Assembly (NCBI GenBank): GCA_017996395.1
Contig: JAGOHA010000003.1
Coordinates: forward strand, 20,427 to 84,426
DNA from: Acidobacteriota bacterium
GTDB taxonomy: Bacteria; Acidobacteriota; JAAYUB01
Reading direction: 5' to 3'
Length of the DNA stretch: 64,000 nt
In this document: positions 1-55,179 of the stretch, one piece after another
Position numbering within the stretch: the first letter of the stretch is position 1
Layout: the number at the start of each line of letters is the position of its first letter
Program-made: the position numbers and the translations under genes
The notes under the pieces: generated by a model
The model's database searches: none
Told to the model about the DNA's origin: nothing
The model's input: the letters and a program-made list of their open reading frames with translations, nothing else

Positions 1-853
1 GAATGCCGGCCCCCTCATCCTCGACCGCAAACCGGATTCCGTCCGGTTGTTGACTCATTTCCACGCAGACGCGGCCGTTTGCGGGCGACGCCTGGATTGC
101 GTTCTGCACCAGGTTGACCAACGCCTGACGGAGGCGATCCGGATCAAAACGTGCCCGCAGCTGCTCCGGCGCCGCATAGTCCAGCCGGACACCGCGCTCC
201 GCGGCTTGTGCCGCCAGCACGCCCATTGTCTCGCGAACCACCTCCGTGAGATCTGAGGAGAGTGGCGCCAGGTTGAGCGGACGGTGAAGGTCCAGGAAGT
301 CTTCCATCACGCGAGCCAGACGACGGATCTCGCGGTTGAGTATGTCGAAGAAAGGCCGCCGGGGATGATCGACCGGATAATCCTCCGCCAGGATTTCCGC
401 GGCACCCTGGATCGAGCCGAGCGGGGTCCTCACCTCATGGGCAATCCCGGCCGCCGTGCGACCGGCGGTGGCGAGCCGCTCCGCTGTCACCAATTCCTTC
501 TCCAGCGCTTCCTTGTGACGGCGCTGCCGCTCCCCCTGGGTGACGATGAATCCCATCAGCGTGCCGATGCCGAAATAAAACACGATTTCAACGACTTCCG
601 GATTTTCCCAGAGCGAACATTCCATTCCGAAGACCAGCGGGAGAACAGCCAGCGAAATGGCCGCTGCGGTCAGCACCCCACCCCACAGGCCGAACCAGAG
701 CGCGCCTAGGATCACGGGGATATAGCACAGGCGCCGGTGAATCAGATGCATGGCATGGAAAAAGCCGGCATGCGGCAGCAGATAATGGATGGAAACGGTC
801 GTGGCCAGAACGCCCAGCACGATGATCAGTCGGATTGCTTTGCCTGACATCAT
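1..853 (-). CDS. Sensor histidine kinase; the C-terminus runs off the window edge
   Basis: Minus-strand translation from the tandem ATG-ATG at 853..848 gives MMSGKAIRLI..., about 3 TM helices, an H-box 'AHEVRTPLGSIQGAAEIL', then an HATPase region (LVNLVQNAIQASP...GIRFAVEDEGAGI). The ORF is open to position 1. Confidence 0.8.
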   Translation of the reverse strand, partial: MMSGKAIRLIIVLGVLATTVSIHYLLPHAGFFHAMHLIHRRLCYIPVILGALWFGLWGGVLTAAAISLAVLPLVFGMECSLWENPEVVEIVFYFGIGTLMGFIVTQGERQRRHKEALEKELVTAERLATAGRTAAGIAHEVRTPLGSIQGAAEILAEDYPVDHPRRPFFDILNREIRRLARVMEDFLDLHRPLNLAPLSSDLTEVVRETMGVLAAQAAERGVRLDYAAPEQLRARFDPDRLRQALVNLVQNAIQASPANGRVCVEMSQQPDGIRFAVEDEGAGI

Positions 854-1062: not shown

Positions 1063-1143
1063 TGGATGATGTCTGCAGTTTGATGCCGACAGATTAGATT
1101 CGAAGAGCATGAGTCCAAGTTAAATTTATAGGAGGATATCTCA

Positions 1144-1632
1144 ATGCGTAAAAATCTCATCGTGCTCGGTCTGACCATCGCCGTAGCTGCATGGCTGACC
1201 GGTGGCCTGCTGGCTCAGGAAACAGCTACCCAAGGTGTGAGCACATCAGGCGATGCCGTCAAGACCGATGTCAAGTGCAAGTGTCCCGATTGCAAGTGCA
1301 CGGATTGCACGTGCGATAAGTGCAAGTGCGTGGAGTGCAAGTGCCACCCCTGCAAATGCGCCGACTGCAAGTGTGAGAAATGCAAAAGCGGTGACGGCAA
1401 ATGCGAACACGCCAAGACCGCCTGCTGCATGACCGCCAACGCCCAGTGCGCCCAGGACAAGGCCGCGTGCGGTAAGGCTGCCGTTGCCAAGTGTGCGATC
1501 GACAAGGCCGCCTGCTGCAAGACTGACGCTGGCAAGTGCGCGCACGACAAGGTCGCCTGCAAAGCCGGCGAGTGCAAGTGCGCCAAGGACAAAACAAAAC
1601 CAGCCGCACCTCAGGCGGAACCCCTGAAGTAG
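1144..1632 (+). CDS. Secreted Cys/Lys-rich tandem-repeat protein, metallothionein-like (signal peptide + CKC hexapeptide repeats + 15-aa DKAAC repeats)
   Basis: GGAGGA RBS 7 nt upstream. N-terminal signal peptide MRKNLIVLGLTIAVAAWLTGGLLAQE. 29 Cys in 162 aa: KCKCPDCKCTDCTCDKCKCVECKCHPCKCADCKCEKCK, then CCMTANAQCAQDKAACGK...DKAACCK...DKVACKAGECKCAK. Rho-independent terminator downstream. Confidence 0.7.
   Translation: MRKNLIVLGLTIAVAAWLTGGLLAQETATQGVSTSGDAVKTDVKCKCPDCKCTDCTCDKCKCVECKCHPCKCADCKCEKCKSGDGKCEHAKTACCMTANAQCAQDKAACGKAAVAKCAIDKAACCKTDAGKCAHDKVACKAGECKCAKDKTKPAAPQAEPLK
1271..1600 (+). repeat. Intragenic tandem DNA repeats (about 18-bp 'tgcaagtgc'-type units at 1271..1390; three 45-bp units at about 1453..1590)
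   Basis: 'tgcaagtgc' and 'tgcaaatgc' recur with 18-nt periodicity. 'gacaaggccgc(g/c)tgc' recurs with 45-nt periodicity. Confidence 0.6.
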
Positions 1633-1670
1633 CGTTTAACTGAAATCCCATCCTGTCGACGAATCCGATC

Positions 1671-1704
1671 GGGCACTCCATTGCGGAGTGCCTGATTTAT
1701 TTTG
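1671..1704 (+). terminator. Rho-independent terminator after the Cys-rich protein gene
   Basis: GGGCACTCC-attgc-GGAGTGCC hairpin followed by TGATTTATTTT. Confidence 0.6.
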
Positions 1705-1792
1705 GGGAGCCGGTGACTGTCCGGATCAAAAGGATGTGAATCGTCCACAGACTGGTGCCCCGGCTGCGTCCCCCCAGCCTGGGTAGTTGCGA

Positions 1793-2608
1793 CTATTTCT
1801 TATGCAGCGACCGGAATACACCGCTGAATGAAGGGAAATCGTAATACAAGGCTCCGCCCGATTCGATGGTGAGCCAATGGAGGGCGGTCAGGCCGAGACT
1901 GTCCAGCATCAGATCCCGGTTGATCTGGCGGTTTTGGAAGTAGCGCATGTCACCGGTGAAAAACGAGGAACCGGTTCGGTCGTCTTCGGCGAAGAGGTCC
2001 TTCTCGGTGTTTTTCCGCACGTAAAAACCATACAATCGGATCTTGTTTTCCTTCAGATATCTGGTCAGCTTGGCTAACGGTTCGTATCGCTTGGGGTCGA
2101 AATCCTGCTGGTCCATGATCACCGGTTTCTCCACCGCCGTGATGACGGACGGTTTGATGTTCACGTGTTTATCCACGTTGGAACCTTCGAGCTGCATGCT
2201 CTGAAACATGGCCAAACAGCGGCAGTTGCTGATGAAAAAGACCGGCTGATCCTGGATCCGCCAATGCGCGAGGATGGCCAGCAGATCCTTGAACGGCACC
2301 GCATTCTGGTTGGCGGCCAGGAAATCCATTCCCTTTGCCGGCCAGTCCAGTTCCCCGGCCTTCCCGTGCCGCACCGGGTAGACCGTGTTACCGAAGAATC
2401 CGAAGATGCTCACCTGGCAATCCGAAGGCAGTCGCTTGAGCAGTTCCGCAAACCCCTTGTTGAAATTCAACGAGGTCATCGCGGGATCCGCATCCTGTTG
2501 GATGACAAAAGTGAGGCGTTTGGGTGCGGTCAGATCCCCGGCCGCCGCCCACCCGGCACAAACCGCCAGAGCCAGCATGACGCAACATGTCCATCGGTGC
2601 ATAGCCAA
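1793..2608 (-). CDS. Hypothetical secreted protein (signal peptide); lower GC than surroundings
   Basis: N-terminus MAMHRWTCCVMLALAVCAGWAAAG is signal-peptide-like. Coherent 271-aa ORF with no recognisable catalytic motif. Confidence 0.5.
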   Translation of the reverse strand: MAMHRWTCCVMLALAVCAGWAAAGDLTAPKRLTFVIQQDADPAMTSLNFNKGFAELLKRLPSDCQVSIFGFFGNTVYPVRHGKAGELDWPAKGMDFLAANQNAVPFKDLLAILAHWRIQDQPVFFISNCRCLAMFQSMQLEGSNVDKHVNIKPSVITAVEKPVIMDQQDFDPKRYEPLAKLTRYLKENKIRLYGFYVRKNTEKDLFAEDDRTGSSFFTGDMRYFQNRQINRDLMLDSLGLTALHWLTIESGGALYYDFPSFSGVFRSLHKK

Positions 2609-3616: not shown

Positions 3617-3853
3617 TCTCCGGACGGCGATCCCGGCATGGCGTCCAGAACGCGTGTCCCCGGTTCATTTCGAATGAAAACCGCTGCGGGACTTTTAGCT
3701 GTCGGGCACCATGTGAATAGTATCCCCGTCAAGGCCCGCAGGTTCTTATATCACACACCGAACGTTTGAAAGCAAAACACTCGGACCTAGGATTCCACAG
3801 GGTTCAACGTGCCGTTGAGCGGATCTTGGATACAGATGGGTTTCTGGTGTACC

Positions 3854-5590
3854 ATGCAATCCGTGGCAAACAGGGTCCGAATTTCCACTATACCAATCAG
3901 ATGGAGCATCACCCTGCCCCTGGCGGCGGGCATCCTGCTGATGGTGCCCCTCCTGCAGGGCATTCCGTTGTCCCATGATCTGCATATCCACCTGGCCATG
4001 GTGGATCAATTCCAGGAGAGTCTGGCCGAAGGTAATGTGTATCCTCGCTGGCTGGCCGATTTCAACGAGGGCTATGGCGCCCCCACCATGATTTTCTATC
4101 CCCCCGGTTTGTTCTACTGCGCCAGCTTTGCGGCGGGATTATGCGGTGGTAACATCTTGGTCGGCCTCTATCTGATCCTGACACTCCTGACAATCGTCGG
4201 ATTCGCCGGGGTGTACCGGCTGCTGTCGGAACCGGCCGGGCCGTGGGCGGCGGCCGGCGTCGCATTCGCCTTGGTGGCTCCATTCCGCGTATTTGAGCTT
4301 CATGCTGCCGGTTTGTTCCCCGCTTACGCGGCCGGCTGTATGTTTCCCTGGTCCCTGGATTCTCTTCGGCGCATTGCGGCTGAACCTACCGGCGGAGGCT
4401 GGCTGAGCCGGCCCGTTCAGGGTTGGGCGGTTTCCGTAGCAGTTATGCTGCTCCTGAACCTGCCGTTCACCGTGTTGGCGATGACGCTGGTGTCTGCTTG
4501 GCTCGTTTTCGAGACCGTGAGAAGCCGCCGGTTGGACACGCTGATCCGGGTGACCGCCGGAGCCGCGGTAGCCCTGGCAATCTCGGCCGTTTATCTGTTG
4601 CCCGCGCTGGCTGAACGGCACCTCGTGACGCTGCCACAGGCCGGGCAAAACGTCTATGCGGGCAATTTTCTCTTCATGCCACCCGGCACGTGGGCGGATC
4701 CCGCACTCCAGCACCTGTTCCAACGCATGGCGCTGTTTCCTCTGGCGTTGGCAGTCGTGGGATTGGTGGTGATACTGGCGATGAAACGGGGTTTCACCGA
4801 ATCGGTCCAATCGCCGTTCAGCGGCCTCCTCCAGCTCGCCTCGTTGATCGCCGTCGGGGCGGTTTTCCTGTCCTCGCCCGCATCCGGGTGGCTGTGGGCG
4901 GGGATTCCCGCCCTGGCAACCCTCCAGCTCCCGTGGCGGTTGCTGGACCATCTCGCCGCGCCCTGCAGCATCATCACCACTATGGCGATGGCTGCGGTGT
5001 GGCGGTCCAGGGTCCGTTACGGCTGGGTGCGGTATGCTTTTGCCGGCTTATGCCTGGTTCTGACCCTGCTGATGAGCATGCTCAGTTTGTCTTGCATCCG
5101 AATGAACGGGTTTGCGCCACCTCACGATATCCTCGAGCAAGTTGCCGCATTCCGGCGGCTGCCGGGCGATTATCCACCCCAAGGTTCCGAGCTCACACCG
5201 CAGCGCGCGGATGACGCCCTGGTGACCGTGGCTCGCGGGCTGATCAGCGGGAAAGTCATCGCATGGGAAGCCGAGCGCCGACGAATCGACATCCAGGCGG
5301 AGACACCCGGCGCCATCGCGTTGCGCACCTGGTACTATCCCGGCTGGTCCGCCCGCGACGAACGGAATGTGACGCTCCCGGTGACCGCGGAGCCGGGCAC
5401 GGGGAAACTCCTCATCGCCGTCCCCGCCGGACGTCATACTTTGGAGATCCGCTTCGGTTCCACACCACTGCGCCTTGCCGCGGTGTGGTTGAGTCTGTTC
5501 GCGGCCCTGGGGTTTGCTGCTGCCTGCATCTGTCCGCATATCTTTCGAAATCAGAAAAAATCCAACTCCGCCCCGCATCCCGGCATCTGA
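3854..5590 (+). CDS. Polytopic membrane protein; YfhO-like / GT-C-superfamily putative glycosyltransferase
   Basis: N-terminal loop motif HDLHIHLAMVDQFQESLAEGNVYPRWLADFNEGYGAPTMIFYPP resembles the YfhO/GT-C first-loop signature. More than 10 TM helices and a C-terminal soluble domain. The track ORF starts at 3809; a likely internal start is M at 3854. Confidence 0.4.
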   Translation: MQSVANRVRISTIPIRWSITLPLAAGILLMVPLLQGIPLSHDLHIHLAMVDQFQESLAEGNVYPRWLADFNEGYGAPTMIFYPPGLFYCASFAAGLCGGNILVGLYLILTLLTIVGFAGVYRLLSEPAGPWAAAGVAFALVAPFRVFELHAAGLFPAYAAGCMFPWSLDSLRRIAAEPTGGGWLSRPVQGWAVSVAVMLLLNLPFTVLAMTLVSAWLVFETVRSRRLDTLIRVTAGAAVALAISAVYLLPALAERHLVTLPQAGQNVYAGNFLFMPPGTWADPALQHLFQRMALFPLALAVVGLVVILAMKRGFTESVQSPFSGLLQLASLIAVGAVFLSSPASGWLWAGIPALATLQLPWRLLDHLAAPCSIITTMAMAAVWRSRVRYGWVRYAFAGLCLVLTLLMSMLSLSCIRMNGFAPPHDILEQVAAFRRLPGDYPPQGSELTPQRADDALVTVARGLISGKVIAWEAERRRIDIQAETPGAIALRTWYYPGWSARDERNVTLPVTAEPGTGKLLIAVPAGRHTLEIRFGSTPLRLAAVWLSLFAALGFAAACICPHIFRNQKKSNSAPHPGI

Positions 5591-5665
5591 TGAGCGGAGA
5601 GTCTGAGCTCACATCCACGGCATCCTAATGAGTGCCGGCTTAGAATGGAACCAGGTGTCGGTGTC

Positions 5666-6355
5666 ATGAAAGCGTGTATGCTGCTCCGAATCGTCGCCAT
5701 CATCTCGGCAGGTTGCCTGTCGATACCTTGGCTTCCAGCGGATCCGCCTGCCGAGGGCACGGCGCCATTGGCCGTGCGCCGGACCGGAGCCTCGGAGTTG
5801 CAGATCCAGCGTGCGGACGGCACCGCGTTCACGATCCGCTTCATGGAGACGGTGATGACCGTGGTCACCAATCCGATCTACCCGCTGGCGGCGGTGTTCA
5901 CGACCGATGAGCCGCCCGGCAGTCCGCTGGTGGTGCCGCCCCAGCCGGTGGCCACTTGTTCGGCATACATCCTGCACACAGTCACCGGTGAATTCGAGCG
6001 GATACCCACAGATGAGACCATGCTGGGCAGCTGGTTTTTCCAGGTGTGGTCACCCGACGGCCACTACGCGGTCATTCTGACCAGTCAATGGGGCGGTTTC
6101 AAGTTATTCCGCGCCGCCGACTGGATCAACAGCGGCGGGCACCTTTGGATCGACTGGCGGAAACCGTGGCGGAGCATGGGCGCCCGCGACACCCCGCCCC
6201 GCGCCGGTGACCCGGCCAAGATCCACCGGTTTATCTCCTGGGAAGGCCCGGCCACGTTTTCCTTCAGCGGATCCTGCTGCGGGACCGAGTTCAGGTACCG
6301 GTTCGATATCGAGCAGGACCGGTTGACGCGCACCGGCCAGCGCGAGCTGCCTTGA
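5666..6355 (+). CDS. Hypothetical lipoprotein
   Basis: MKACMLLRIVAIISAGC has a lipobox-like SAGC. No recognisable domain. Confidence 0.4.
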   Translation: MKACMLLRIVAIISAGCLSIPWLPADPPAEGTAPLAVRRTGASELQIQRADGTAFTIRFMETVMTVVTNPIYPLAAVFTTDEPPGSPLVVPPQPVATCSAYILHTVTGEFERIPTDETMLGSWFFQVWSPDGHYAVILTSQWGGFKLFRAADWINSGGHLWIDWRKPWRSMGARDTPPRAGDPAKIHRFISWEGPATFSFSGSCCGTEFRYRFDIEQDRLTRTGQRELP

Positions 6356-8991: not shown

Positions 8992-11109
<2,118 letters not shown>

Positions 11110-11800: not shown

Positions 11801-13141
11801 TCAGCCATCCGCCGGATCCGGCACCCATTCGCCTCGCAGCGAGTGGGCGCTGGCGTCGGTGATGCGCACCCGGCAGAAAGAACCCATGAGGTTCGCGTCG
11901 CCTAAAAAATGGACGATCTTGTTTTCCGTGGTCCGAGAGGCAAGCTGCCCCGGCTCGCGGCCCCGTCCATCCACCAACACCTCCCGGATCGAGCCGATTT
12001 CGGCGCGATTGTTCTCCAGCTGAATCGCCTCCTGCGCCGCCTGCAGCCGGACAAGGCGTGTCTGCTTGACCGGCCGCGGGATTGAATCCGGCTGCTCGAA
12101 AGCGGGCGTCCCCGGGCGCGGGGAATACATGAACGAGAAGATCGAGTCGTAGCGGACGAACCGCAGCAGGGCCAGGGTCTCTTCGAAATCCCGCTCCGAC
12201 TCTCCCGGAAAGCCGACGATGAAATCGGACGACAGACTCATGTAGCGCTCCGCTTGCCGGATCTTGGCCACATGGGCGAGGTAGTCATCGGCGGTGTACT
12301 TGCGGTTCATCGCCATCAAGATACGGTTGGATCCGGATTGCGCCGGCAGATGGAGCTGGTTGCAAATGACCGGATTCGCTTCCATGACCTGGAGCAGCCG
12401 TGGGTTGAAATCCTTGGGGTGCGAGGTCGTGAACCGAAGCCGTCTCAGGCCGGGGACGGCAGCGACCGCCGCGAGGAGATCGGCGAACTCATGCACCTCC
12501 CCGGCCGGATCGCGGTAGGAGTTGACGTTCTGTCCCAGCAGCATGATTTCCACCGCCCCGTCAGCCACGAGGCGGCGGATCTCTTCGAGGATCCGACCGG
12601 ATGGCCGGCTCCGCTCCCGCCCCCGGGTATGCGGCACCACGCAGTAGGCGCAAAAATTGTCGCACCCCTCCATGATGGTCACGAACGCACGAAACGTCGT
12701 CTCGCGCAGGATCGTGTCCGTCTCGACGGGCATGGGATCGTCGTCCATGTCCACATCCACGCAACGCTCGATCCGGCCGGCGTCCAGGTCGTCCAGATGG
12801 CGGGTTAAACGGTGGATCTTGCGCGTGCCGAGGACCAGGTCCAATCCGGCGAACTGCTTCATCATCTCCCAACCCTGCTGCTGCGCCACGCAGCCCAGGA
12901 CACCCACCCGCAGCTTCGGTCGCCCCGCCTTGAGCGCCAGTGTCTGTCCGAGGTAAGAGAACACTTTCTGCACCGGCTTTTCCCGAACACAGCAGGTGTT
13001 GTAGAGGATGAGGTCGGCATCGTGCGGCCGGGCGGCTTTCCGCCACCCGGCGGAAACGAGCAGGCCGGCCGCCTTTTCCGAGTCGAGGACGTTCATCTGG
13101 CAACCGAACGTGTGGATGAAGAATGTCTTGCTAGCAGCCAT
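11801..13141 (-). CDS. miaB: tRNA-i6A37 methylthiotransferase MiaB
   Basis: N-terminal FFIHTFGCQMNVLDSE (MTTase domain), radical SAM core CDNFCAYCVVP, C-terminal TRAM. Confidence 0.85.
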   Translation of the reverse strand: MAASKTFFIHTFGCQMNVLDSEKAAGLLVSAGWRKAARPHDADLILYNTCCVREKPVQKVFSYLGQTLALKAGRPKLRVGVLGCVAQQQGWEMMKQFAGLDLVLGTRKIHRLTRHLDDLDAGRIERCVDVDMDDDPMPVETDTILRETTFRAFVTIMEGCDNFCAYCVVPHTRGRERSRPSGRILEEIRRLVADGAVEIMLLGQNVNSYRDPAGEVHEFADLLAAVAAVPGLRRLRFTTSHPKDFNPRLLQVMEANPVICNQLHLPAQSGSNRILMAMNRKYTADDYLAHVAKIRQAERYMSLSSDFIVGFPGESERDFEETLALLRFVRYDSIFSFMYSPRPGTPAFEQPDSIPRPVKQTRLVRLQAAQEAIQLENNRAEIGSIREVLVDGRGREPGQLASRTTENKIVHFLGDANLMGSFCRVRITDASAHSLRGEWVPDPADG

Positions 13142-27366: not shown

Positions 27367-28251
27367 TCAGGAACGCGGATGGTATTTCTTATAGATCTCC
27401 TTCAGGCGCGATTGCGTCACAAAGGTGTAGATCTGGGTGGTGGCGATATCCGCATGCCCCAGCATCAGCTGCAGCGATCGGAGATCGGCCCCGTTCTCCA
27501 GCAGGTGGGTGGCGAACGAATGCCGGAGCAGGTGCGGGGTGATGTTTTTCATGATCCCCGCGTCACGACCGTAGCGTTTGATGTTCTTCCAGAATCCCTG
27601 CCGGGACATCCGCCGGCCGAACCGATTGACGAAGAGGTAGGGCTCCGGCTGCTTCATCAGCAGATTGCGGGCTTCGCGGATGTACCGCTGCACCCAATCC
27701 CGGGCCTGGTCGCCCACCGGGACGATTCGCTCCTTGCTCCCCTTGCCGAGGCAGATGATGTACCCGATCTCCAGGTTGACATCGGGCACCTTGACGTTGA
27801 CCAGTTCCGTCACCCGCAGCCCGGTGGCGTAGAGGAGCTCCAGCATCGCCTTGTCCCGCAGTCCTTCCGGAGACACCGGATCAGGCTGTGACAACAGCGC
27901 ATCCACCTCGGCCGGGCTCAGGTACTTCGGGAGCGTGTGCCACCGCCGCGGCGCCTCCAGCAATTCGGCGGGATCGCCGGCCATGTGCCCGTCCCCGACC
28001 AGGAATCGGAACAATCCCCGCAGACTGGCCACGGCCCGGGCCACCGAAGACGGCTTGTACCCTGCGGTGTACAACTCTTTCAGATACGCAAGGAGGTCCA
28101 CCCGCTCGGTCTGGATCAGCTCCCGGCCGCGCGCCTCCAGGAAGTGCCTGAATCGCCGAAGGTCCGTGCGGTATGCCGCGACTGAGTTCGGCGCCAACCC
28201 TTTTTCAACGGTCAGGTGCTGCAGAAACTCGGCGAAAAGATCCCGGCTCAT
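27367..28251 (-). CDS. xerD: Tyrosine recombinase XerD/XerC
   Basis: SAM-like N-domain plus catalytic HLLRHSFATHLLENGADLRSLQLMLGHADIATTQIYT. Confidence 0.8.
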   Translation of the reverse strand: MSRDLFAEFLQHLTVEKGLAPNSVAAYRTDLRRFRHFLEARGRELIQTERVDLLAYLKELYTAGYKPSSVARAVASLRGLFRFLVGDGHMAGDPAELLEAPRRWHTLPKYLSPAEVDALLSQPDPVSPEGLRDKAMLELLYATGLRVTELVNVKVPDVNLEIGYIICLGKGSKERIVPVGDQARDWVQRYIREARNLLMKQPEPYLFVNRFGRRMSRQGFWKNIKRYGRDAGIMKNITPHLLRHSFATHLLENGADLRSLQLMLGHADIATTQIYTFVTQSRLKEIYKKYHPRS

Positions 28252-28253
28252 GC

Positions 28254-28889
28254 TCAGAGCACAATGTAGGGATTGAAGTGAATTTCGTCTTCCACGGTGC
28301 TTTCCGGACCGTGCCCCGGCAGCAGTCGCGTGGCCGGCGGAAGCGGGAGGATCCGGTCCCGGATGGAACGGAGCAACGCGGCCTCGTCGCCGCCCGGCAG
28401 GTCGGTCCGGCCGATGCCGCCGGCGAACAGCGTGTCACCCGTGAAGCAGGTCGTGTCCAGCAGCAGGCAGCACCCGCCCGGCGTGTGTCCCGGAGTGTGC
28501 AGCACTCGAAAGACCATGCAACCCACCGCCAGGTGCTGGCCGTCCTCCAGCCACGCGCGTGGTTCCGGGCACGGGCGCGCCTGCAGCAGGGGGACCAGAC
28601 CGAAGATGTCCGGCGCGGTGAGGAGATACTCGTCATGGCGATGCAGATGCCCGACCGAGGGAAAGGCGTCCGCCACATCGGCCGCCGCGGCCCAGTGGTC
28701 CAGATGGCCATGCGTGTGGATCATCATGACCGGGCGCCATCCCAGCGCCCGCAGACGGTCCACGATGCGGCCGCCGTCCGCCCCCGGATCGATCACCGCG
28801 GCTTGCCGGGTCTCCATGCAACCGACGAGATAACAGTTCACCTCGAGCGGGCCCACGACGACGGTTTCGATCTGGAAGCGGGCCATCAT
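28254..28889 (-). CDS. MBL-fold metallo-hydrolase (glyoxalase II-like)
   Basis: HTHGHLDH zinc motif; HTPGHTPG. Confidence 0.75.
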   Translation of the reverse strand: MMARFQIETVVVGPLEVNCYLVGCMETRQAAVIDPGADGGRIVDRLRALGWRPVMMIHTHGHLDHWAAAADVADAFPSVGHLHRHDEYLLTAPDIFGLVPLLQARPCPEPRAWLEDGQHLAVGCMVFRVLHTPGHTPGGCCLLLDTTCFTGDTLFAGGIGRTDLPGGDEAALLRSIRDRILPLPPATRLLPGHGPESTVEDEIHFNPYIVL

Positions 28890-30796
28890 TTGTCCTTTGC
28901 CGATGATAGGCCCTCGGGAAAGACGATGCGCAGCAGAAATCCGCCTGCATCCGTCAGTTCGAAATCCAACTGGCCACGCTGCCGGGCGATCAACCGGTTC
29001 AGCAGGACAAAATGGAAATCCCGAGCCACGTCGAAGGCGACGAGTTTGTCCTTGTTGCCCCGGGCGCCCGTCGGAGGATTGAAGCGAATCATGAGTTCCG
29101 GTGCCGCGTTTTCGCGGACGAGGCAGACCGCCTGCAGCTTGCCGCCGGAGACAAAATCCAGCAACCGATCGAGGAACAGTCGAAGTCCCAGCAATGTGAG
29201 TTCCTCATCGAGCATCACCTGCCCCAACCGGGCGTCGAACCGGGCGTCGATCTCGACACTCTTGGCCACGGTTTTAGAACGGATCGCGACGAATACGCTG
29301 TCCAAGGCAGGCATCAAGGCCATCGGCTGGATCTTGAGGGGATAATCCCGATCGGTGATCACCCGGGTGAGTTCCAGTTTCTGCAGGCTGCGTTCGACCT
29401 TTTCGATTTCGACGACGCAGTTGCGGAACAGGAGCGGATCATAGGCGTCGCGTAGGCTCCGCTTCACCCCGTCCTCGAGCATCTGGACAAAACCGCGCAG
29501 GCTGGCCAGGTGCACGCGGATGGACTGTCCCACCGCGTACACCGTGTTGAATTCCGTGGCTTCGCGCAGCGCCATCTCCAGCTCGGACACCTGGATCGCC
29601 TGCCGGCTGCCGGCCTGGTTCAAGCGGTTGATCTCCGCGGTCAGTTTGTCCAACTCACCCTGGTAATACAGGGTTTTCCTCAGCACGAACGATCCCATCT
29701 CCACCAGGCGCAAGAGCGTGCTCAGCGAAGCGGCGTGAAATAACTGCGGTTGGGTGGATTCCAGCACCACATACCCGTAGATATGCTTGAACGTCACCAG
29801 CGGAATCACCAGCACGGACTGCAATTTCTTCGGTGGCGACGGCAGTGGATACTTCTTCATGAGGGCGAAGGCGTCGGGGGCGTACAGCAGCTGCTTGCCT
29901 TTCTCGAGCTCCTGCCGGGCGCTGGGCAGCAATGAGAGAATGAGGGGTTGCTCCAACATGTCACCGTGGCGGACCTCGATTCCACCATCGGGTGTTTCCA
30001 GAAGCAGGGTGACATCAGCGCCTGGGTAGGTCTCCTGAAGATAGCGGTGGAATGCCTCCATCACCTTGTCCAGTGCGGCGAACACTGCAATCTCACTGAG
30101 GAAGGCCGAGACCGTATCGGCTTCTTCCGACCGCCGGGCCAGTTCGTTCTGCAGGGCGCGGTAGGTGAAGAGCGCTTCAACGATTTTCCCGATTCGGGCC
30201 AGGTCCTTCTCCCGGCGATCGGTGTCTTCCGATGGAATAGCCAGCAACACCCCGCCGACCGTCTCGCCGGCATGGACGATGGGACAGAGTGTCACGGACT
30301 GAAGCACGTCTTTCCCCTCTTCGACCGTCATGCCGTTTTCCCAACCGGCTGGCAAGCGCACAGGTTCCGGGGCGGCCTCCGGCGCCGGTCCCGCCTGGCT
30401 CAGGATACGCTCCGCCAGCCGGTCGGGATCCAACCGGGTCGACGGATACTGATGGTTCAGTACCTGTCCGGTCGCCGAATCCCTCAATACGAATGCGGCA
30501 TATGGCAGTCTGAGGATCCGGCCCATCTCATCGAACGCTTCCGGCAGCCGCCGGGAAGCCCGGTCCACGTCGCTGATGATGGCACAGGCCTGATCATAAA
30601 GAGCTTCTCGAAAGCTCAACTCCACCGTCAACTCACTGATCTGCTTTTCCGCCGCCAGTTGCCGCCGTTCGGTTTCGCGACGCTTCCGCTCGAGCCAGCC
30701 GGCGAGGATGGCCAGCGCCACGACGAAGAAAGCGAGGATCCACGGGATCATCCCGGACATGGCCAATATCACCGGGACATTGTGCAGTTCAAGCAT
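28886..30796 (-). CDS. Membrane-anchored GAF-domain sensor with a degenerate histidine-kinase-like C-terminus
   Basis: One N-terminal TM, two GAF-like regions, a DHp-like segment SIRVHLASLRGFVQML. The C-terminal region lacks clear N/G1/G2 ATP-lid boxes. ATGA overlap with the downstream MBL hydrolase gene. Start chosen at MLELHN (30796) rather than the track start at 31090. Confidence 0.5.
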   Translation of the reverse strand: MLELHNVPVILAMSGMIPWILAFFVVALAILAGWLERKRRETERRQLAAEKQISELTVELSFREALYDQACAIISDVDRASRRLPEAFDEMGRILRLPYAAFVLRDSATGQVLNHQYPSTRLDPDRLAERILSQAGPAPEAAPEPVRLPAGWENGMTVEEGKDVLQSVTLCPIVHAGETVGGVLLAIPSEDTDRREKDLARIGKIVEALFTYRALQNELARRSEEADTVSAFLSEIAVFAALDKVMEAFHRYLQETYPGADVTLLLETPDGGIEVRHGDMLEQPLILSLLPSARQELEKGKQLLYAPDAFALMKKYPLPSPPKKLQSVLVIPLVTFKHIYGYVVLESTQPQLFHAASLSTLLRLVEMGSFVLRKTLYYQGELDKLTAEINRLNQAGSRQAIQVSELEMALREATEFNTVYAVGQSIRVHLASLRGFVQMLEDGVKRSLRDAYDPLLFRNCVVEIEKVERSLQKLELTRVITDRDYPLKIQPMALMPALDSVFVAIRSKTVAKSVEIDARFDARLGQVMLDEELTLLGLRLFLDRLLDFVSGGKLQAVCLVRENAAPELMIRFNPPTGARGNKDKLVAFDVARDFHFVLLNRLIARQRGQLDFELTDAGGFLLRIVFPEGLSSAKDK

Positions 30797-30968
30797 GCCG
30801 ACTCCGCATGTTAGCATGTTGATATTCAATAGTTTCTGCATTATCCCATTGTCTGGTGGACCTGTCAAACCCAAAAGACCCTTTATAGACCTGCCCCACC
30901 CGGTCGGCGAACTTTCATGTTGCAATCCATCTGTAATTCCAGTATGTTGGCCACTTGTCGAGGACATC

Positions 30969-31628
30969 ATGCTTTCATTCACGCGAACCATCGGCGCCGG
31001 CGGGCAATTCCTGCTGACCAAACTGACATCCGCTCTCGGGCGAATCAAGGTCAATCCCAACCTGATCACTTTGTTGGGTTTTGTCATCAATATCGTAGCC
31101 GCTTTTTACCTTTCCAAGGGCCAATTCGGCATCGCCGGCACCATCATCTTCATCGCCGGCGCCATGGACATGCTGGACGGCGCGGTGGCCCGTTTGACGG
31201 GGACGGCAACGAAATTCGGCGCATTCTTTGACAGCGTCATCGACCGTTACTCCGATATCGTGCTCTACCTGGGCCTGATCATTTACTTCGGCAAGATGCC
31301 GCGAATGACCTACGTGGTTCTGGTGGGGATCTGCATCATGGGCTCCATGATGACCAGCTACACCCGAGCCCGCGCCGAAAGCCTGATCGATAAGTGCAAG
31401 GTGGGATTTCTGGAACGCCCGGAGCGCGTGGTGCTACTGATCCTGGGCACCTGGTTCTACCGCGTGGAACACGTGCTGTGGGTGATTGCCGTTCTGTCCA
31501 ACTGGACAGTCATCAGTCGCATCATCTTCACCTGGATGGAGCTGTCCAAGGTGAACATCCTGATGCCCATCACTCCGTCATTCCAAACCGAGAACCCCGT
31601 CGAGCAGAAGCATCCCATCGAGTGCTGA
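30969..31628 (+). CDS. CDP-alcohol phosphatidyltransferase family protein
   Basis: DMLDGAVARLTGTATKFGAFFDSVIDRYSD matches D-G-x2-A-R-x8-G-x3-D-x3-D. Confidence 0.7.
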   Translation: MLSFTRTIGAGGQFLLTKLTSALGRIKVNPNLITLLGFVINIVAAFYLSKGQFGIAGTIIFIAGAMDMLDGAVARLTGTATKFGAFFDSVIDRYSDIVLYLGLIIYFGKMPRMTYVVLVGICIMGSMMTSYTRARAESLIDKCKVGFLERPERVVLLILGTWFYRVEHVLWVIAVLSNWTVISRIIFTWMELSKVNILMPITPSFQTENPVEQKHPIEC

Positions 31629-55103: not shown

Positions 55104-55179
55104 TGGTGCCGAGGGACGGAATTGAACCGCCGACACAGGGATTTTCAGTCCCCTGCTCTACCGGCTGAGCTACCTCGGC
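55104..55179 (-). tRNA. tRNA-Phe (anticodon GAA), CCA encoded
   Basis: Reverse complement GCCGAGGTAGCTCAGCCGGTAGAGCAGGGGACTGAAAATCCCTGTGTCGGCGGTTCAATTCCGTCCCTCGGCACCA: 7-bp acceptor stem, anticodon loop CTGAAAA, T-loop GGTTCAATTCC. Confidence 0.9.

Follow-up and report, generated by a model that had tools for sequence, protein, structure and literature searches.

Metallothioneins are defined by their properties and not by descent. To our knowledge, all bacterial metallothioneins characterised so far are cytoplasmic, and the periplasmic metal buffers known to us either bind metal through methionine and histidine ligands, such as CusF, PcoE/SilE and ZraP, or consist, as Csp1 does, of a pre-folded helical bundle exported by the twin-arginine translocation (Tat) route. 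Bacterial metallothioneins have been described as cytosolic and Csp1 as a Tat-exported, cysteine-rich copper store (PMC7558416), and a cell-surface location has been reported for PmtA, a member of the BmtA family (PMC11237414). The metallothioneins of Tetrahymena subfamily 7b are built on the elementary motif CKCXXCKC, with Lys beside a strong majority of the Cys and essentially no CC, and are induced more strongly by Cu than by Cd (PMC1808422). On the regulatory side, ZraR drives divergent sigma-54 promoters for the zraSR operon and for zraP, the gene of a periplasmic Zn-binding protein (PMC4987338), and ZraP is reported to repress ZraSR (reference cited in PMC4987338). Here we describe, in a 64,000-nucleotide stretch of an Acidobacteriota genome (the window, to whose numbering all coordinates refer unless a contig handle precedes them), a gene at 1144–1632 on the plus strand that encodes a Cys/Lys/Ala-rich, putatively exported protein. 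This protein may be an intrinsically unstructured, thiolate-rich one that works like a metallothionein, as an inducible metal buffer of the periplasm, and we give this reading about an even chance of being correct. In the literature on periplasmic and secreted bacterial metallothioneins, no description of a Sec-exported metallothionein-like protein was found.

The cysteine-rich gene and its product

The open reading frame at 1144–1632 is a real gene under purifying selection. Between it and six orthologous variants, the ratio of nonsynonymous to synonymous substitution rates is 0.08–0.20, all insertions and deletions are in frame, and substitutions are concentrated at third codon positions (for instance 23/14/52 over the three positions against the variant of L008). 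The product of 162 residues, with the stop codon included in the coordinates, contains 27 Cys, 27 Lys and 28 Ala. In the mature part of 138 residues, Cys makes up about 20% (27, or 19.6%), Lys 19% (26) and Ala 17%, together with three His, nine L/I/V/M and no aromatic residue (F/W/Y). The Cys content is far above chance expectation (P ~2e-22 for at least 27 Cys per 162 residues); the other likely genes of the window (n = 43) average 1.2% Cys and 2.8% Lys, and the highest Cys content among them is 3.3%. Lys adjoins 20 of the 27 Cys; the CxC triplet occurs eight times and the CC doublet twice, both doublets being confined to the second of the two repeat blocks.

Residues 1–24 (1144–1215) form a predicted Sec-type signal peptide, MRK / NLIVLGLTIAVAAWL / TGGLLA|QE. 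The call is made from heuristic sequence features, namely two K/R, a 12-residue hydrophobic stretch with a mean Kyte-Doolittle value of 2.76, a TGG that breaks the helix, and a small residue at −1 of the LLA|QET site. The N-terminus carries neither a twin-arginine motif (RK stands instead) nor a lipobox, a hydropathy scan of the 162-residue protein revealed no second hydrophobic segment, and residues 1–29 are almost invariant among orthologues. Should the signal stay uncleaved, the protein would be anchored in the periplasm by its N-terminus and the argument would be unchanged. Since the window is a piece of an ordinary diderm chromosome (it encodes TolQ-like, TolB-like, Pal/OmpA, YbgF-like, MlaDEF, OprB porin, RseP, Dxr, RecN and MiaB proteins), the exported protein would reach the periplasm or beyond.

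The mature chain carries two blocks of repeats. Block 1 (residues 45–81; 1276–1386), CKCPDCKCTDCTCDKCKCVECKCHPCKCADCKCEKCK, reads (CKCxx) × 7.5 with 15 Cys. Its Cys stand at 45, 47, 50, 52, ..., 75, 77 and 80, giving a period of five residues, and Tandem Repeats Finder (TRF) reports a period of 15 nt with 6.5 copies at 1276–1373. Block 2 (residues 86–146; 1399–1581) has 12 Cys in Ala/Lys-rich units of 15 residues, CAxDKAAC(C)Kxxxxx, and ends in CKAGECKC; a single Cys recurs every 7–8 residues, and TRF gives a period of 45 nt (15 residues) with 3.4 copies at 1409–1560. The C-terminal end is a Cys-free Lys/Pro tail, AKDKTKPAAPQAEPLK (1582–1629), which may be a docking or spacer element. In the initial annotation, the frame of 162 residues, the peptide strings quoted from it and the second block of 15-residue repeats were given correctly and the Sec-type signal is supported by the heuristic features, while the Cys were miscounted as 29 and the first repeat, in fact the pentapeptide CKCxx, was taken for a hexapeptide. 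The divergence from a sensor kinase gene (start at 850, minus strand) that it described is found as well, as are the two signals that it assigned to the gene, a ribosome-binding site AGGAGG (1130–1135, plus strand; read directly, 8 nt 5′ of the ATG, with GGAGGA invariant across orthologues) and an intrinsic terminator (1667–1707, plus strand; a 13-pair stem with a 5-nt loop, then TATTTTGGGG, the stem being kept in L008).

With no aromatic residue and only nine L/I/V/M, the mature chain appears to have no hydrophobic core, so that any structure would have to come from metal ligation or disulfides. AlphaFold2, given an alignment of three sequences, returned no confident fold, with a mean predicted local distance difference test (pLDDT) score of 39.7 and a predicted template modelling score of 0.17. 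The sole helices of this low-confidence model are short, lie at residues 90–124 within block 2, and are accompanied by no beta structure. A chain that takes up its structure only on binding metal would be expected to lack an autonomous fold.

Contigs in 107 blocks of the assembly collection carry a gene for the identical protein. Variants from the genome and metagenome scans share 90% (L011), about 78% (L012 and L013), 72% (L014) and 74% (L015) identity with it, and the variant common to L008, L016, L017 and L001 shares 64%. The closest named genome with an orthologue is an Acidobacteriota metagenome-assembled genome from an anaerobic membrane bioreactor (JAXGLX010000002.1), a habitat that makes a reduced periplasm plausible. 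Compared with its neighbours (83–99% identity), the Cys-rich protein (64–90%) is the product of the fastest-evolving gene of the locus; the KPAAP[PQ]AEPLK of its tail is nevertheless invariant in the orthologues, and a similar tail, KPAPEKPEKP, ends the distant relative P0002 described below. All 15 Cys and the repeat number of block 1 are invariant in the seven orthologous variants, and block 2 has between 2 and 5 copies of its 15-residue unit, the differences being due to in-frame insertions and deletions. The Cys totals of the seven are 27, 24, 23, 28, 30, 24 and 26. In the CC doublets, one Cys is exchanged for Gly in orthologues, and losses occur singly and not pairwise. The variable and odd totals, the invariant 15 Cys of block 1 and the Cys-to-Gly exchanges argue for plastic thiolate ligands and not for a fixed disulfide framework. 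Two variants show length changes of block 2: that of L014 (6001–6579) has an exact recent extra copy of CGMTANAKCAHDKAA, which brings it to 192 residues, and that of L011 (2970–3416; the variant of 90% identity) is missing the final 14 residues of the block, CKAGECKC among them.

Beyond the orthologues, matches are few. A word-index search of 5.8 billion proteins returned a single cluster, P0001, of the L008 type, a profile search of 1.84 billion representatives returned four proteins at E ≤ 1e-3 (P0001, P0002, P0003 and P0004), and tblastn against plasmids gave no match. P0002 (122 residues, E 2.8e-7) has the full architecture: its signal peptide is followed by seven CxCxx units, a short segment with DKxAC and a tail of Pro and Lys. 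Two of the four, P0003 (a low-complexity Ser/Thr kinase) and P0004 (GrpE-like, with CECDD repeats), were set aside as compositional matches and not family members; the N-terminal CECDD pentapeptide run of P0004 (133 residues), CECDDCECGDCECDDCECDDCECDNCECDDCE, shows a CxC design of period 5 that is acidic and apparently cytoplasmic. Short look-alikes came from a further profile search and from the metagenome scan: P0005 (82 residues), an open reading frame of L019 (74 residues) and P0006 (71 residues), in which CxCxxCxC runs follow a signal-like N-terminus. N-terminal K/R with a hydrophobic stretch is found in P0002, P0005 and L019 as well, and P0005 and P0006 match metallothionein families below threshold (E 0.28–0.4). 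The family proper thus appears to comprise one genus-level Acidobacteriota clade plus P0002, and the design of an exported CxCxx run seems to recur sporadically. The same searches also found L018 (5206–6096), which encodes a membrane protein resembling the cytochrome b of succinate dehydrogenase/fumarate reductase (weak Pfam Sdh_cyt match, E 0.0017). Its C-terminal tail, ...CKCTDCKCDPCKCAEKEGCTCDPCKCEECNC, is rich in Cys and Lys and forms a metallothionein-like extension of this respiratory membrane subunit.

The sigma-54 promoter and the adjacent two-component system

A predicted sigma-54 (−24/−12) promoter, TGGCACGGTGCGTGCC, lies at 1044–1059 on the plus strand, 85 nt before the ATG, with a predicted transcription start near 1070. 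It agrees with TGGCACG-N4-TTGCW at 14 of 16 positions, and its GG and GC are correctly spaced. In all orthologues the most conserved block of the 293-bp spacer is TTTGGCA[CT]NGTGC[GA]TGC, 94–114 nt before the ATG. The weight of the assignment comes from the position, the conservation and the neighbouring gene of a bacterial enhancer-binding protein, and not from the quality of the match. The element could also be read as a palindrome, TTTGGCAC-N5-GTGCCAAA, serving as an operator or a bidirectional sigma-54 promoter. L015 has lost the right arm of the palindrome and the GG of the minus strand but keeps GG and GC on the plus strand, which argues for a plus-strand promoter and against a symmetric operator, and the palindrome was rejected in both roles. 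Another imperfect palindrome, TCAGATGATGAATATTATTGATCAGA (894–919), forms an inverted repeat some 125–150 nt upstream of the sigma-54 element. Just its GAATATTATTG core is conserved among orthologues, and the palindrome overlaps a minus-strand site of sigma-70 type; with low confidence, it is a candidate enhancer (upstream activating sequence) for the response regulator or a part of the promoter of the kinase operon.

The divergent kinase gene (1–850, minus strand, start codon at 850) is cut by the left edge of the window, which contains its N-terminal 283 of 352 codons. The full gene was read in L003 (8649–9707), where the context is identical. The encoded protein has a membrane sensor of four transmembrane segments, which lacks a large periplasmic domain, and then the Pfam domains HisKA and HATPase_c. 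Its top NCBIfam matches, ZraS and AtoS, cover the kinase core only and fall below cutoff, and residues 10–113 match DUF4118 weakly (E 0.014). Two places in the sensor offer possible metal ligands: IHYLLPHAGFFHAMHLIHRRLC, a conserved segment of 22 residues that is rich in His (five, with one Cys), and a second loop, GMECSLWE. After the kinase comes a response regulator of 446 residues with Response_reg, Sigma54_activat and HTH_8 domains and a GAFTGA loop, the element that contacts sigma-54. The Cys-rich gene and the kinase gene are divergently transcribed, and the order of kinase, regulator and Cys-rich gene is kept in all lineages. Given the conserved sigma-54 promoter and the GAFTGA regulator nearby, the Cys-rich gene is probably an inducible target of the adjacent two-component system, the regulator being expected by analogy to act on this promoter.

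Other genes accompany the locus. To the left of the window, beyond the regulator, L003 (6799–7296) encodes an exported protein of 165 residues that has a hydrophobic segment at its N-terminus and two YHS domains, YHS being a putative metal-binding domain, and such a gene stands beside the regulator in four of five lineages. It is followed by DUF302 and TetR genes and an MFP-ABC2-OEP efflux set. On the other side lies a gene (1793–2608, minus strand) that in all lineages converges on the Cys-rich gene and encodes a conserved protein of 271 residues with a hydrophobic, Cys-containing leader. This protein gave no match in Pfam, NCBIfam or the PDB, and its single-sequence AlphaFold2 model (pLDDT 42) is unusable.

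Possible metal buffering and alternative functions

If the protein is a periplasmic metal buffer, the kinase would be activated by a signal, for which a soft metal in the envelope is the most plausible candidate, and the phosphorylated regulator would remodel the sigma-54 holoenzyme at 1044–1059. The monocistronic mRNA would be translated and the unfolded chain exported by Sec. In the reducing periplasm of an anaerobe, the 27 Cys would bind soft metal as multinuclear thiolate clusters, the charge of which Lys would neutralise. Bound metal would be kept from envelope targets by buffering or sequestration in the periplasm, and the signal may decay as free metal drops. Cu(I) is the favoured candidate metal because of the CKCXXCKC analogy and the YHS neighbour. 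Zn, Cd and similar ions are the alternatives, with only the ZraP analogy favouring Zn.

The usual operational marks of a metallothionein are present in the protein, that is, a Cys content of some 15–30% arranged in CxC, CxxC and CC, absent or scarce aromatic residues, and few His. The mature part of 138 residues exceeds the size of classical metallothioneins (<10 kDa) and falls within the range of the modular ciliate ones. Smith-Waterman alignment, expressed as z above composition-preserving shuffles and to be taken as a lead, gave z values against human MT2A of 2.8 for block 1, 3.2 for the whole mature protein and 1.4 for block 2. The likeness of block 1 to the metallothionein beta-domain, proposed in the initial annotation, is therefore modest, and the CKCXXCKC of Tetrahymena 7b is the closer pattern. 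The comparison of block 2 with the alpha-domain in that annotation does not hold, the score being no better than composition gives and the spacing of the Cys forming no CxC or CxxC clusters. In the annotation's description of the protein as metallothionein-like, the Lys-flanked CxC, the lack of aromatics and the extreme Cys/Lys content stand, but no metallothionein family was found by the Pfam or PDB search. The view that the protein is unrelated to SmtA/BmtA agrees with the searches given below. A match to a well-characterised non-metal-binding family, named there as a possible refutation, was not found in the family search, and looking for orthologues in related genomes, as it proposed, produced the six variants under purifying selection.

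Several results weigh against a metal buffer. The Pfam scan of the protein found no family at E ≤ 10, metallothionein families included (Metallothio_Pro, that is SmtA/BmtA), and phmmer against all PDB chains found no metallothionein; the NCBIfam scan gave only a spurious ValS tail match at E 0.86. The similarity to human MT2A is just z 2.8–3.2 over composition, and against SmtA, CUP1 and Neurospora Cu-metallothionein z is at most 1.5 (0.85 for SmtA). The Cys-rich gene has no canonical metal-resistance gene (P-type ATPase, Cus/Czc or multicopper oxidase) beside it, the L008 lineage lacks the YHS gene, and the neighbourhoods of the look-alikes (MnmE for P0002, FlhA for P0005, CysS for P0006) provide no metal context. 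Word-index and domain searches with the N-terminal sensor region of the kinase gave no informative homologue, and the kinase and the regulator are not orthologues of ZraS and ZraR, with equivalog scores of 210 bits against a cutoff of 479 and of 367 against 760. Sigma-54 matches with up to two mismatches number six in the window, compared with 11 expected in shuffles. Finally, exported Cys-rich proteins are usually disulfide-bonded.

Alternatively, the protein could be a thiol buffer of the periplasm or a sacrificial scavenger of oxidants, electrophiles or reactive sulfur, for example upon oxygen exposure of an anaerobe, and the two-component system would then sense envelope or redox stress. 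The composition, disorder, export and inducible sigma-54 control fit such a role equally well, and metallothioneins are themselves known from reviews as oxidant scavengers. The missing neighbours of the classical metal-resistance type also agree with it, as does the membrane-embedded sensor of the kinase with no periplasmic metal-binding domain. However, a mere reservoir needs neither a regular Lys-flanked CKCxx nor an invariant repeat number, both typical of metal-cluster ligands. No thiol-disulfide oxidoreductase gene is adjacent either; the nearest gene with a thioredoxin domain (8992–11109) lies at a distance of about 7 kb, in a block that looks unrelated. We consider this function unlikely, yet it survives best among the alternatives.

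Less likely again is a periplasmic accessory or feedback regulator, or a chaperone, of the adjacent two-component system in the style of ZraP and CpxP, with the KPAAPPAEPLK tail as its docking element. In that case its metal or thiol chemistry would be put to signalling and not to sequestration in bulk. The divergent sigma-54 layout follows the logic of zraP/zraSR, the C-terminal tail without Cys is strictly conserved, and a kinase that has no periplasmic domain of its own might need a partner. Yet there is no homology to ZraP, CpxP or Spy, and 27 Cys in variable repeats look like capacity and not like a specific interface. Such a role is compatible with metal buffering and does not exclude it.

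Since most exported Cys-rich proteins are stabilised by disulfides, and a chain with no hydrophobic core needs some cross-link for structure, the protein may instead be a cross-linked secreted or structural protein with no metal role, such as a small beta-solenoid, a knotted repeat or a component of the envelope or matrix. The phmmer search of the PDB points weakly the same way, for its one match, which is not significant (E 0.23), is a McbG-like pentapeptide-repeat beta-helix protein sharing the period of 5. Membership in the pentapeptide-repeat family itself (the A(D/N)LXX quadrilateral beta-helix) was rejected on this E value, the lack of a Pfam match and the lack of beta structure in the AlphaFold2 model. 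Paired cross-links are difficult to reconcile with Cys counts that are odd and variable next to an invariant 15 in block 1, and with Cys lost one at a time. Moreover, AlphaFold2 performs reasonably on disulfide-rich repeats and finds nothing here, the habitat is anaerobic, and tight inducible sigma-54 control would be unusual for a structural protein. We hold this possibility to be improbable, below the two preceding ones.

A precursor of a ribosomally synthesised and post-translationally modified peptide (RiPP) of the sactipeptide or ranthipeptide type, or an Fe-S or haem protein, is very improbable and was rejected, the sole support being a high Cys content behind a leader-like N-terminus: no radical-SAM or other maturase, protease or exporter gene adjoins in any lineage (the MiaB-like radical-SAM gene at 11801–13141 is of the tRNA-modification type and 10 kb away), the N-terminus is a classical Sec signal and not a RiPP leader, the protein has neither CxxCH nor the ferredoxin motif CxxCxxCxxxC, and a chain that Sec exports unfolded cannot carry an Fe-S cluster assembled beforehand.

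The periplasmic metal buffer can be extended into a bolder proposal, unlikely to hold in full, of a new class of exported metal-storage or detoxification proteins, of which this protein would be the founding member, with two chemically distinct modules, a fixed cluster in block 1 and an expandable block 2, induced through a dedicated sigma-54 two-component circuit in strictly anaerobic Acidobacteriota. The 15 Cys of block 1 would wrap a defined Cu(I)- or Zn/Cd-thiolate cluster. The thiolates of block 2 would be aligned on a helix, perhaps as part of an oligomeric coiled coil lined with Cys, for which Csp1 and designed tris-cysteine peptides would be the models. Capacity would be tuned by the copy number of block 2, which ranges from 2 to 5 among close relatives, in an anaerobic setting where free sulfide and Cu(I) would dominate.

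Setting of the locus and comparison with known systems

Elsewhere in the window, a tRNA-Phe (GAA) gene at 55104–55179 on the minus strand is the sole Rfam/ARAGORN match. Three open reading frames have no Pfam match and a high GC content at third codon positions: 28886–31090 (minus strand, 734 residues), 3809–5590 (plus strand, 593 residues) and 5645–6355 (plus strand, 236 residues). The first of these adjoins a gene for an XerC/D-type tyrosine recombinase (27367–28251).

If metal buffering is the function, a disordered thiolate-cluster protein exported by Sec, with its own sigma-54 circuit, would be a different solution to metal handling in the periplasm. It would show how uncultured Acidobacteriota of anaerobic digesters handle soft metals, and bioremediation or biosensing could make use of it as a small metal-binding module that is secretable by nature. 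The kinase–regulator pair has one clear target promoter and is a tractable system for finding the signal of an orphan membrane-embedded sensor. What would be new is the combination of metallothionein-like chemistry in a new compartment, a two-module architecture, and control by a sigma-54 two-component system.

In its genetic layout the locus resembles ZraP/ZraSR of Escherichia coli and Salmonella, where the gene of a periplasmic protein is likewise divergent from a kinase and a sigma-54-dependent regulator and has a sigma-54 promoter. The likeness does not extend to the proteins. ZraP is a helical, LTxxQ/CpxP-like, His-based Zn binder with no sequence similarity to the Cys-rich protein, for which neither Pfam nor NCBIfam gave a match to the ZraP/CpxP/Spy group, and ZraS has a periplasmic domain, in contrast to the kinase described here. 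SmtA, BmtA, PmtA and the mycobacterial MymT are also small bacterial Cys-rich metal binders; unlike the present protein, they are cytoplasmic and have no signal peptide, and SmtA has a zinc-finger-like fold with His ligands. With the beta-domain of vertebrate metallothioneins the protein has the local string CKCxxCKC in common, and there is no relationship at the level of hidden Markov models. Csp1 of Methylosinus trichosporium is likewise exported and rich in Cys thiolates, and its Cys lie along helices, similar to the helix-prone spacing of block 2 (PMC7558416). It is, however, a pre-folded four-helix bundle that travels via Tat, whereas the present protein has a Sec-type signal and no confident fold; the lack of a Pfam match, of a confident AlphaFold2 fold and of a twin-arginine motif places it outside the Csp1/Csp3 group.

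The closest parallel to block 1 is in the Cu-inducible metallothioneins of Tetrahymena subfamily 7b, such as MTT2 and MTT4, which have tandem CKCXXCKC, Lys-flanked Cys and no CC. Like the protein described here, they are longer than classical metallothioneins and have evolved by modular repeats (PMC1808422). They differ in being eukaryotic and cytosolic, with no signal peptide, no block of heptad-spaced Cys with Ala and Lys, and no Pro/Lys tail. Because there is no detectable homology and the comparator is a eukaryotic cytosolic protein, the likeness probably reflects convergence towards a shared ligand geometry, and convergence on the geometry of CKCXXCKC is in itself an argument for metal-thiolate chemistry.

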